The position numbers are program-made. A stretch of DNA of 12,369 bases, from IMG/VR virus record IMGVR_UViG_3300037678_000008, positions 1 to 12,369 of that record. One strand, given 5' to 3'. Origin of the DNA: a virus (taxonomy: Duplodnaviria > Heunggongvirae > Uroviricota > Caudoviricetes). Below, one piece after another: positions 3,001 to 6,000 of the stretch. The first letter of the stretch is position 1. Every line of letters starts with the position of its first letter.

Positions 3001-6000
3001 TTGAAGATCTGACAAAGCCTGTCAGCGAAATCATCACCAATGCCAGCGCACGTGTACCTCTGTTAACCATTGAGCAGCTTGCGGAGATCTATAGTCAGGC
3101 CGACTTTATTGAATCCTGGCTAAAGGCAGTACGGGACCGGGTTCACAATGAACTCAATGCCGGACATCCGGTACCGGGGTTTAAACTGGTAACAGGAAAA
3201 CAAGGTAACCGGGCCTGGAGTGATGAAGAAGCCGCCCGCGCGCTGCTGAAAGACCAGTTCCGTTATAAAACCGAGGAGGTTTTCGATCTTAAGCTGATTA
3301 GCCCAACCAAAGCCGAAAAACTTATCAAAAAGGCCAGTCCGCGCCGTTGGTCAAAAGTCGAGGCACTGATAACACGAGCTGATGGTAAACCAACCGTCGT
3401 TCCCGAGTCGGACCCACGCCCCGCACTCAATATCAACCCTGTAAATGATTTCGACGACGTATCCGACGATACGCTCGCCGCAGACCTCATCTGATTAAAG
3501 GAGACTTTCATGAAGATTAAATTAAATAACGTGAGATTAGCTTTTCCTGCTCTGTTTGAAGCTAAAACTGTAAACGGCGAAGGCGATCCGCGTTTCTCCG
3601 CAGTATTTTTAATGTCTCCCAAACACCCACAACTGGAAGAAATCCGTAAAGCTATGAAGCAGGTAGCGAAGGAAAAATGGGGGGAGAAGTGGGAGTCCAT
3701 TTATAACCAGCTGGAGAAAAAACTCAATCTGTGCCTGCATGATGGTGATGAAAAAGCAGAGTATGAAGGCTTTCCCGGCAATTTCTTCCTGAACGCAGCT
3801 AACAAAGCGCGCCCAGCTGTTCTTGATCGCGATCGTTCGCCACTAATTCAGGCTGATGGACGTCCCTATGCAGGGTGCTATGTAAACGCCGTTATCGATA
3901 TCTGGGCACAGGACAATAATTTCGGTAAACGCATTAATGCCTCACTCGGCGGAGTCCAGTTCCTGCGAGACGGCGATGCATTCGCTGGCGGCGGAGTGGC
4001 AAGCGCTGACGATTTCGACGATATCAGCGAAGGTGCTGATGCTGAAGCACTGATATAAGGATCAAATGGTGGGCGCTCATCGCCGCAGCCAATGACGACT
4101 GTGGCGGTGACGGAAAGAGAGCAAAAACCAGGTAGATTTGTTAAAGGCGCAGCGGGTGGTTGGCCCGCCGCACCTTAAGTACGTTTCCTGCTGTTACAGG
4201 AACAGCAGGATCAGCTGCAGAACAGCAATGACGATTCTGATAATCTGCTTAAGCAGTTCTCTGTGATCCGCCATCCGTTTTTCCTTTCATGAAAGGAATG
4301 CAGTCGTTCAGCTCAGCCCTTCCGTTTCCTCCGGAGCTGAACGAGTGCCACGTTGGTGCGTGCACATCGCATTCCAGGCCAGGGCTTTGACGACACCACT
4401 CGTTTCAACGGAGAAAAACCGGCGTCTCAGCAAGGAATGCGGGGCGTTAGCAACAACAGGCGGCATTTTAGCGAAGGTGTGTATGAGGAGCTACTTTAAG
4501 CTTGCAAAATTTTGCAGGCTTCCCGATAATCTCCTCGTTGGAGCGTGCACACCGCAAAATCAGCAGTAAAGTAAAAACCCCTGTTCCTCACCAGCTCAGG
4601 GGTTTTTGCTGTCCGTAAAATCACCACGTTTGACAAATCCGCCAGAGCTATCGCATACTGGCCGCACTACAACGTATAGCGGTCAACCGCACCCGATAGC
4701 TTTGCGGCTTTTTTATGCCTGTTTACAGGTATCGCCATATCTATGGCGGGTCGAGAGAGCCTAATACAACACCCTTTCGGGGAATACGCTCCGCCGTCTA
4801 TACGCGGTAGTTGAAGCCCGCCACCCTACTACCCTGATATTGACTCATCGCCCCCTTCCGGTTTATGCTCACCGAATCTCCCAAATGGAGATCGGGATTT
4901 GCAACCCGGAATTGTTAGGGGCGACACCAGACGCGCCAGTGTCTTTTTTATTGTCGCAAGCTTTGCCACGTTCGCATTATGGCGGGCTGGCGGGGGCGCT
5001 TCGGCGCGCCGGTTTCCTCTAACGCCGGTATTGCAAACCTCGTCAGTTCGCCACCCATATGAGATTTGCAACTCAGTGGTGGCGGTGAATTTCACCGTTA
5101 GAGGTAACAGTGATGGCAACTCAACTCATCCCCGTTTTCAACGGCGCTATCGCCAACGAAACCACCCTGCTCTGCAATGCTCGCGATCTGCACGCATTCC
5201 TTGGGGTAGGGAAAGTGTTTGCAGCGTGGATTACATCACGAATTGCAGACTATGAATTCGTTGAAAATCAGGATTATATCGTAACGTTTTCCAAAACTGG
5301 AAAGCGTAAAAATGTTCTTTGTAAGGACTACCACCTCACTCTCGATACAGCCAAAGAACTGGCGATGGTGGAGCGCAACGAAAAAGGCCGCCAGATACGC
5401 CGATACTTCATCGAGTGCGAACGCAAACTGCACCAGCAATCCTCCACGATACTGGCGCCACACAGGGAGTGTCTGCCGAAGATGGTTTACCATCACCGGA
5501 GCAAATACAACCCGTACAGAGCTTACGCATGGGACGGAGAGAAAAGCGTTTACGTCGGGTGCTATCCGACTGTGGATGAGGCTGTCGCTGCTCAGGAACG
5601 CTTCTACCGGAACGGCAGCACGAAACGCATTCAGAAGGCGCAGACAGCAGTCAGTGACGCAGAGAAGGAGATGTTCATCAACAATCTCCGCGCCGTCTGT
5701 CATAACTTCCGGCGCATCAATGAAATCTGGCGGGCGCAGTTAATGCCTGCTCTCGAAAAAATGGATTCGAAACTGGTTTACCAGTTGCATGACCGCTTCA
5801 GCGACAGCATGTGCATTCTGCCGACCATAGAAGACCGCATCGGCAGATATATCCCACCCACTTTACCTCGTTAATCCTTCAGTTCGCCCCTGCTCAGCCA
5901 GGGGCTTTTTATCACCGTTTAATTTACGGAGGACTTCGTTTTGTCTGAAAACACTGATTTAAAAAAGCAAAGTATCAGACCTGTAATATCATTTGGCCTG

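Follow-up and report, generated by a model that had tools for sequence, protein, structure and literature searches.

What are the two short stretches of DNA that run from a promoter to a hairpin with a T-run, at positions 4630-4714 and 4840-4949, upstream of an antirepressor gene in a phage of the class Caudoviricetes? The DNA in question, hereafter the window, comprises the 12,369 nucleotides (nt) of IMG/VR record IMGVR_UViG_3300037678_000008 (positions 1 to 12,369 of that record), and its source is a 47-kb Stx2b prophage between yfhL and yfhH in Escherichia coli HY220605 (NZ_CM132922.1, 1327161-1374017). An earlier, sequence-only reading had proposed both units as candidate small RNAs that are too short to encode protein. 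We find that the non-coding region 4570-5112, upstream of the antirepressor gene ant, is composed of two tandem cassettes on the plus strand, the strand of all elements of this region and of ant. Each cassette has the same plan, in which a sigma-70 promoter is followed by a short leader, a weak hairpin with a U-run, a spacer of ~25-30 nt, and an antisense RNA of the C4 type that is ~80 nt long. With moderate confidence, we favour the interpretation that this region is an RNA control region for ant, resembling immI of phage P1, that the two units are the front parts of its cassettes, and that their leader RNAs titrate C4 RNA.

Within the window itself, the units do not stand out. The 12 promoter-like sites compare with 13.4 +/- 3.7 in shuffled sequences, and the 19 terminator-like sites with 15.0 +/- 3.5. 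Motifs in this sequence alone are not above chance, and therefore the reality of the units was settled by comparison with other sequences. The same counts, together with the short open reading frames (ORFs) that overlap the region, are what would be expected if the units were chance look-alikes of promoters and terminators, or small protein-coding genes. We regard this explanation as refuted by the conservation and covariation that extend across many phages, and by the behaviour of the only recurrent ORF, both of which are described below.

The second cassette is complete, with its parts in the order promoter, a1 and b1, antisense RNA, a2 and b2, and antirepressor. Promoter 2 (4840-4869) has TTGACT at -35 (4840-4845) and TATGCT at -10 (4864-4869). 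It precedes a leader of the IsrK type with its terminator (unit 2, 4876-4950, ~74 nt). The Rfam model for isrK (RF01394) aligns over its full length (model positions 1-77) with 4876-4949 (45.4 bits, E = 1.3e-8; the cut-off of 50 is not reached), and position 1 of the model lies 7 nt past the -10 element of promoter 2. A second model, c4-a1b1 (RF03163, described as 'a1, b1 targets of C4 antisense RNA'), aligns with 4863-4912 (29.8 bits, E = 1.3e-5; the cut-off of 46.7 is not reached). Unit 2 forms hairpin 1 (4876-4892) and hairpin 2 (4893-4908), the latter presenting site a1 (UUUGCAA, 4898-4904) in its loop. These are followed by site b1 (UGUUAGGGG, 4913-4921) and by a terminator in which AGACGC (4929-4934) pairs with GUGUCU (4939-4944) around a 4-nt loop before a U-run that extends to 4949. 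The hairpin and T-run at this position had been recognized from the sequence, and they are both present and conserved. The 5-base-pair (bp) register first assigned to the stem (GACAC/GUGUC) did not hold, since its 5' arm is non-complementary in homologues; the stem conserved in the alignment is AGACGC/G(C/U)GUCU.

The RNA encoded immediately downstream (4975-5058) matches the Rfam C4 family (RF01695) with 70.6 bits, above the threshold of 45, and by analogy with the annotated P1 c4 its mature form probably spans 4981-5055. It has a tRNA-like closing stem and a 3' end that reads GCCACC; a search of the window for tRNAs and tmRNAs returned none. C4 RNA 2 carries b' (CCUCUAACG, 5016-5024) in the loop of its second hairpin and a' (UUGCAAA, 5031-5037) in its junction. 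The b' loop is a perfect complement (9/9 Watson-Crick) of site b2 (CGUUAGAGG, 5096-5104), which covers the Shine-Dalgarno sequence AGAGG of ant, and it also pairs with b1 of unit 2 over 9 nt, including two G-U pairs. Similarly, a' is an exact 7-nt complement of UUUGCAA both at a1 and at a2 (5065-5071), the latter of which lies in the loop of a hairpin formed by 5051-5087. The target sites a2/b2 thus occupy 5065-5104 of the ant mRNA. The adjacent gene (5113-5874) encodes an antirepressor of the AntA/AntB family (Pfam PF08346, E = 9.8e-25); the RefSeq protein 'phage antirepressor Ant' begins at the ATG equivalent to window position 5113, and ant is the regulated output of the region.

To assess these pairings, we collected homologues of unit 2 and its C4 RNA from IMG/VR and GenBank, including those of phiP27, SfV, ASU11, Stx1 and Stx2 phages, Hafnia phage Meifeng, phi296, and the loci L011, L052 and L026. 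An isrK match is located 22-25 nt upstream of C4 in 10/10 of the other phage loci, and it scores above the cut-off in 9/10. In the resulting alignment of 11 sequences, 93.5% of the cells of the named pairs are paired and 18/32 pairs exhibit changes on both sides, a result reached by none of 500 shuffles, while alignments slid out of register give 36-45% paired. The contacts between leader and antisense RNA contribute to this signal (a1:a' 97% paired, with double changes in 4/7 pairs; b1:b' 85%, with double changes in 7/9 pairs), as do those between antisense RNA and ant mRNA (a':a2 99% and b':b2 82% paired, with double changes in 11/16 pairs). Covariation in homologues, which had been suggested as a check on the hairpins, is evident. 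Hairpin 1 is 100% paired with double changes in 5/5 pairs, hairpin 2 is likewise 100% paired, and the terminator stem is 92% paired with one exchange of G-C for C-G. All 11 leaders retain a hairpin and U-run. Promoter 2 had also been called correctly, in that TTGA of its -35 and TAnnnT of its -10 are invariant in the 11 homologues while the spacer varies.

Locus L011 (isrK score 54.4 bits) is nearly identical to unit 2 outside a1/b1. Between the two, a1, a' and a2 change jointly (UUUGCAA/UUGCAAA becomes UUAGCAC/GUGCUAA), and b1, b' and b2 do likewise. The a and b specificities assort independently of each other: Stx1_14040 and Stx2_14040 have the same b but different a sequences.

The region lacks a conserved ORF. 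The only ORF that recurs starts at a conserved AUG in the 5' flank of C4. In the window, it begins at AUG 4978 and has 27 codons, with a stop ~50 nt before ant. It has 28 codons in L011 and 3 in the Hafnia phage, whereas in phages similar to phiP27 it forms an in-frame fusion with ant. Because its length and frame vary among phages, no coupled leader peptide is conserved, and the judgement from the sequence that the units have no credible ORF is borne out. GenBank coding sequences cross the isrK and C4 matches in L198 (phiP27, P27p16), L199 (SfV, orf37), L201 and L204 (phi296), with the labels 'transcriptional regulator', 'hypothetical protein' or 'putative phage regulatory protein'. These coding sequences have probably been annotated with starts that lie too far 5', at the same conserved AUG that flanks C4. 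Proteins should not be called across these RNA regions, as several GenBank records now do.

The first cassette begins with promoter 1 (4630-4659), in which TTGACA (-35, 4630-4635) and CATACT (-10, 4654-4659) are separated by an 18-nt spacer. This is the best promoter match of the window (10/12), and transcription probably starts at about 4666. The leader, hairpin and U6 run (4666-4714) would yield a candidate terminated RNA of ~48 nt. Its hairpin pairs CCGCA (4687-4691) with UGCGG (4703-4707) around an 11-nt loop, followed by C and by U6 (4709-4714). With a free energy of -4.8 to -5.9 kcal/mol, it is loose enough, owing to its 11-nt loop, that our terminator scan did not list it. The leader carries a1 (ACUAC, 4666-4670) and b1 (CGUAUAG, 4673-4679). 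A permissive Rfam scan of 4560-5130 found no family that matches unit 1. The antisense RNA of this cassette (4745-4830) matches sRNA-Xcc1 (RF02221) with 60.0 bits, above the threshold of 53, and the mature RNA probably covers 4745-4825 and ends in GCCACC. The loop of its second hairpin provides b' (CUAUACG, 4798-4804), a 7/7 Watson-Crick complement of b1, and its junction provides a' (GUAGU, 4807-4811), the complement of a1.

Unit 1 (4629-4721) recurs with 90-94% identity in roughly 380 genomes of E. coli and roughly 100 records of Stx phages. In POCJ13 and Stx2 phage 86, it is followed by a match to sRNA-Xcc1 and by an antirepressor gene. When four loci were compared by eye, the leader site, the loop and the ribosome-binding site were seen to change jointly. 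These sites read CGUCAG, CUGACG and CGUCAGGAG (b1, b' and b2, respectively) in POCJ13; CUUCAAAG, CUUUGAAG and CUUCAAAGGAGG in Stx2 phage 86; CGCAUAG, CUAUGCG and CGCAUAGGA in L158; and CGUAUAG, CUAUACG and CGUAUAGGA in E. coli JNEC-KY171 (hereafter KY171). For a broader assessment, IMG/VR was scanned with a pattern based on the conserved hairpin core of sRNA-Xcc1, which recovered 119 stretches. Over 93 distinct cassettes, the longest complement between the second-hairpin loop and the leader averages 6.8 nt for cognate pairs versus 4.9 nt for non-cognate pairs, and it reaches at least 7 nt in 62% of cognate pairs versus 6.5% of non-cognate pairs. For the loop and the downstream ribosome-binding-site region, the corresponding means are 6.5 and 4.5 nt.

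The signals for transcription initiation and termination that had been read from unit 1 are likewise present in its relatives. Twelve enterobacterial homologues keep TTGAC(A/T) and (C/G)ATACT at a spacing of 17-18 nt, with five unrelated spacer sequences. The stems of unit 1-type leaders fall out of register in a MAFFT alignment, and rather than counting pairs we used the rate of detection over background and the number of distinct stems. A hairpin with a T-run begins no more than 25 nt after b1 in 86/100 distinct cassettes that have a b1 of at least 6 nt, and 32 distinct stems are represented, while the same detector applied at random positions of these loci gives 10.3%.

Leaders of this type are organized as a1, b1, CGG, a hairpin with a CCCGNNAG loop, and a U-run, and this layout is a motif that has no Rfam family. 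The loop recurs as CCCGNNAG (CCCGAUAG, CCCGUCAG, CCCGUUAG) in ~86 cassettes despite very different stems and hosts, with examples in the window (4692-4699), L088, L095 and L141. Site b1 is almost always followed by CGG, and a plain terminator requires neither CGG nor a conserved loop. The CGG was considered as an extension of the b1:b' pairing, and in the cassettes checked by eye it does not pair. A further candidate interaction, between the hairpin loop of unit 1 and its complement AGCUAUCG in the spacer of promoter 1 (4646-4653), was dropped because the complement is not kept in L115, L129 and L007.

The findings for both cassettes bear on the status that was first proposed for the units. 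Their promoters are conserved, as are their weak intrinsic terminators, and unit 2 aligns end to end with the IsrK model. What does not stand is their independence: each unit is the leader of a cassette, with copies of a1 and b1 on the leader and an antisense RNA encoded directly downstream (4745-4830 and 4975-5058). Small RNAs that act independently in trans on host or other phage targets, with no relation to ant, would account for the promoter and terminator owned by each unit, and the Rfam name of IsrK is 'Hfq binding RNA'. However, where the units vary, they do so at precisely the positions that covary with the neighbouring C4-type RNA and with the ribosome-binding site of ant. They are also always found directly upstream of such an RNA. 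We therefore disfavour this explanation as very improbable.

The locus of Salmonella prophage Gifsy-1 that produces IsrK is the closest experimental guide to what the leaders may do. Some of the transcripts initiated at the isrK promoter stop at a Rho-independent terminator and give the short IsrK RNA (~77 nt), and the others continue through 'orf45' and anrP, the antirepressor gene (PMC4825925, Hershko-Shalev et al.). Processing of the longer transcript yields a stable RNA, STnc1160, and IsrK supplied in trans increases anrP translation 139-fold (PMC4825925). Accumulation of the short RNA, Hfq binding, and trans activation of antirepressor translation have been established for Salmonella IsrK only (PMC4825925). 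Unit 2 resembles IsrK in having two 5' hairpins, a single-stranded stretch, and a terminator with U6 that together span the whole model, and in having its own promoter, with a stable structured RNA ~25 nt downstream and an antirepressor gene beyond it. It differs in scoring 4.6 bits under the Rfam cut-off and in adjoining no antQ gene that we could see in the window. It also differs in its ORF: the stop ~50 nt before ant makes translational coupling of the orf45 type impossible here, and b2 lies directly on the ant Shine-Dalgarno sequence.

The published pairs G28/C162 and G31/C159 were confirmed by the compensatory mutants G28A/C162U and G31A/C159U (PMC4825925). In our alignment, these positions fall on a1 and a', and therefore the 'orf45' region of Gifsy-1 would most simply be a C4 RNA. 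This is our suggestion from the alignment rather than a claim of the IsrK authors. It would give the IsrK locus a simpler reading, in which the compensatory mutants test the a1:a' pairing.

The order of parts in the GenBank record of P1 (P51a/b, a1, b1, c4, a2, b2, icd, ant) is the order found here, and the P1/P7 immI regions share with C4 RNA 2 the same fold, with b' in the second loop, a' in the junction, and b2 on the ribosome-binding site. In P1/P7, as reported by Hartmann et al. (1995) and Citron & Schuster (1990), the 5' end of C4 is cut by RNase P from a longer precursor, and C4 represses translation. Between b1 and c4, P1 reads GCGGacaaCCGCAgauuuccgauauUGCGGuauuuuu, with stem arms as in unit 1 (GCGGucaaCCGCAcccgauagcuuUGCGGcuuuuuu), and the P1 leader and unit 1 share a GCGG-N4-CCGCA...UGCGG-U-run hairpin. 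The P1 leader also scores 35 bits with isrK and 51.0 bits with c4-a1b1. From its likeness to both, it follows that leaders of the IsrK type and of the unit 1 type are two versions of one P1-type leader. Several differences from P1 are apparent. A coupled ORF resembling icd is absent, the sole candidate (AUG 4978) not being conserved. There are two tandem cassettes, the first of which belongs to the sRNA-Xcc1 family rather than C4. No operator of the C1 type was identified, although sites for the prophage's own LexA-family repressor were not searched for. Finally, the host element is an integrated Stx2b prophage of the lambdoid type rather than a plasmid prophage.

We propose a mechanism in which termination, read-through and trans-activation are taken from IsrK, and translational repression and processing from P1 c4. 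A constitutive-looking sigma-70 promoter would initiate a short leader with a1 and b1, which are copies of the target sites of the antisense RNA. The weak hairpin and U-run would end part of the transcripts, yielding RNAs of ~48 nt (unit 1) and ~74 nt (unit 2). Read-through transcripts would carry the C4-type RNA of ~80 nt, to be cut out of its precursor (by RNase P in P1), and in cassette 2 they would also include the ant message. Using loop b' and junction a', C4 RNA would pair with a2/b2 at the ant ribosome-binding site and block translation. The short leader RNA offers the same sites and would titrate C4 RNA, such that abundant leader RNA would permit translation of ant and thereby inactivation of the prophage repressor. 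By inference, this prophage accumulates the short RNAs, and they would act by titration. The terminators must be leaky, because neither the antisense RNAs nor ant mRNA has a visible source other than read-through, and the weakness of the leader hairpins (-4.8 to -7.4 kcal/mol, versus -13.4 kcal/mol for the terminator of the upstream operon) fits partial termination.

Several observations weigh against this explanation. The hairpin of unit 1 is very weak (5 bp with an 11-nt loop), and unit 2 falls below the Rfam cut-offs for both isrK (45.4 versus 50) and c4-a1b1 (29.8 versus 46.7). The IsrK authors explain their results by alternative mRNA structures and the coupled leader ORF orf45, not by titration of C4, and a mutation of a1 in cis raised basal ant translation (93 versus 4 units), which simple titration does not predict (PMC4825925). 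In most cassettes, there is also a constant gap of 3-12 nt between b1 and the terminator stem, an arrangement that would suit an attenuator. In such a device, a C4-type RNA that pairs with a1/b1 on the nascent leader would favour the terminator, so that abundant C4 would turn off production of itself and of ant, in the manner of P4 CI at seqA, and the short RNA would be a by-product.

Such an attenuator is a possibility that was raised by the IsrK authors (PMC4825925). In unit 1 and P1, GCGG-N4-CCGC could fold into a 4-bp hairpin (-4.6 kcal/mol) and so sequester the CCGCA arm of the terminator; the first G of this competing GCGG:CCGC hairpin is also part of b1. The competitor is absent, however, from many cassettes with CCAAC/GUUGG or AUCAC/GUGAU stems. 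Attenuation alone leaves unexplained the trans activation of ant by over-expressed IsrK, and co-expression of STnc1160 did not lower the IsrK effect (PMC4825925). On balance, we consider attenuation unlikely, although more probable than the other alternatives.

The weakness of the hairpins is also compatible with an arrangement in which little termination occurs. Sites a1 and b1 would then act only in cis within the long precursor, for example as a guide for the folding or processing of C4 RNA, and the short RNA would be functionless. The P1 record labels both sites as no more than 'putative' targets within the c4-icd-ant mRNA, and the effect of cis a1 mutations on basal ant translation at the isrK locus (PMC4825925) is in keeping with this proposal. 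It is difficult to reconcile with the detection of IsrK as a discrete terminated RNA that works in trans (PMC4825925), and with the retention of a hairpin and U-run in the 86/100 cassettes noted above and in all 11 leaders of the IsrK type. We judge an action confined to cis to be improbable, and the titration model remains the one that we prefer.

Other known RNAs offer partial parallels. As described, the CI RNA of P4 with seqA and seqC is also a processed small RNA that pairs with repeated complementary sites located upstream and downstream in the same transcript, and seqA has been named a structural homologue of IsrK by the IsrK authors (PMC4825925). CI differs in causing premature transcription termination of replication genes, whereas the downstream site here is the ribosome-binding site of an antirepressor. 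The microRNA-size 24B_1 RNA of the Stx phage Phi24B has been proposed to lower expression of an antirepressor, d_ant (PMC4426718), but its locus lies between lom and vb_24B_43 and its sequence is unrelated. It is ruled out as an equivalent of the units, in that the window contains no match with up to 6 mismatches and the Phi24B locus has neither Xcc1 nor unit 1 motifs.

Lastly, sRNA-Xcc1 (RF02221) has been described as an integron-associated, trans-acting small RNA of Xanthomonas campestris, whereas the second loop of the phage RNAs of this family matches an upstream leader site and the ribosome-binding site of the next gene. From such matches, the family appears to behave as a C4-like, cis-encoded antisense RNA both in the window and in ~100 phage cassettes from IMG/VR, a reading that our literature search did not encounter.

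If cassette 1 is built to control an antirepressor, where is its target? CGTATAG has no second copy on this strand of the window, and in the ~22 kb scanned from the integrase gene to stx2b no copy has the context of a ribosome-binding site. Wider pattern searches of IMG/VR were also unproductive. The loop pattern CCGTCTATACGCGGTAG gave two chance matches only, both inside a coding-looking, AT-rich stretch devoid of cassette features, one of them on a contig of a giant-virus metagenome-assembled genome. The pattern AAACGTATAGGAG N3-12 ATG gave >120 matches, about the level expected by chance, none of which adjoins a cassette.

The cognate target does exist in KY171. There, BLAST shows that the DUF2815 gene shared with the window is followed by a stretch identical to window 4740-4831. 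The RNA identical to RNA 1 is followed by AACUAAACGUAUAGGAAC...AUG of ant, and the sequence runs on as ...CCACCCUACUAAGGUGGCAGUGAACUAAACGUAUAGGAACAUAAUCAUG before the ant gene, including a cognate a2 (AACUA) as well as the b2 given above. The window diverges from KY171 after CCACCCUACUA and passes to promoter 2, and therefore the ant gene and target of cassette 1 were replaced by the IsrK-C4-ant module. On this comparison, cassette 1 is the front half that remains of a second switch with another specificity, whose ant was replaced by cassette 2. The same junction occurs with other upstream content: L004, L005 and L011 retain only a 3' remnant of an Xcc1-like RNA, and L006 has a different complete cassette upstream. 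The full arrangement of the window is present in only 3/5426 complete E. coli genomes. Tandem C4-like cassettes are also found in L158 (4960-5440), the first cassette of which lacks a leader terminator, and in L001 (POCJ13, 190-975), where each cassette is accompanied by a separate antirepressor gene, partly truncated. It seems that cassettes have repeatedly been stacked in tandem and recombined at the 3' end of the antisense RNA.

Orphan RNA 1 may be a relic, or it may be active on related phages. Its cognate antirepressor exists in sibling prophages. A tentative and rather doubtful extension is that RNA 1 blocks the antirepressor when a related phage superinfects the lysogen or resides in the same cell, which would amount to RNA-based cross-immunity between prophages of the Stx type, and that sRNA-Xcc1 RNAs are the antisense part of a second, very widespread class of systems resembling P1 immI. 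If so, the lysogen would make a second antisense RNA, with specificity CGUAUAG, that has been kept upstream of a heterologous IsrK-C4-ant module.

The system described here is already known in kind from P1 immI, c4-a1b1 and IsrK, and the two units are its leader modules. What is mildly new is the C4-like behaviour of sRNA-Xcc1, its own leader motif outside Rfam, and the orphan tandem cassette. Four entries that are filed separately in Rfam (C4, c4-a1b1, isrK and sRNA-Xcc1) can be joined as one modular system, comprising a promoter, a target-mimic leader with a leaky terminator, a processed antisense RNA, and a ribosome-binding site, with the a and b specificities shuffled among phages. Antirepressors allow a prophage to be switched on without cleavage of its repressor. 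This prophage encodes a LexA-family repressor, a Q antiterminator and stx2b, and because it carries the toxin gene, the RNA switch is a plausible control point for induction of a toxin phage.

The 5' boundary of the regulatory region is a strong intrinsic terminator (4574-4612) of the DUF2800/DUF2815 operon, which has a 10-bp stem (AAAACCCCUG/CAGGGGUUUU) with a free energy of -13.4 kcal/mol. Rfam matches at this position are sub-threshold and are all to the terminator ends of other families. The ~510 nt between the DUF2815 gene and this terminator (4059-4573) hold no RefSeq gene, and the only sizeable ORF (4345-4569, 74 amino acids, GTG start) matches no Pfam family. In KY171, DUF2815 and the cassette are set apart by a spacer of similar length.

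The replication and recombination module of this Stx2b prophage is unusual for Stx phages. It includes a DUF2800 nuclease of the PD-(D/E)XK type, a DUF2815 single-stranded DNA-binding protein (Enc34 type), a family A DNA polymerase, VRR-NUC and SNF2. Between a hypothetical gene and the DUF2800 nuclease gene is a gene resembling homing endonucleases (1682-2200, NUMOD4 and HNH_3), which overlaps the start of the DUF2800 gene by 8 nt and is probably a mobile insertion in the early operon. Directly 3' of the DNA polymerase gene, in the early region, 8743-9504 encodes a 253-amino-acid protein with a TIR domain of the CAP12/Pycsar-effector type (PF10137, E = 2.9e-31), which is a candidate for a prophage-borne gene for anti-phage defence or abortive infection. 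Further downstream, two overlapping, divergent genes of the Arc (ribbon-helix-helix) family adjoin a gene for a Rha-family regulator (together at 10199-10673 and 11008-11757; RefSeq; Pfam Phage_pRha). This group resembles the Arc/Mnt control of ant in phage P22, and therefore the prophage may hold a second, protein-based module of the antirepressor type beside the RNA-based one.

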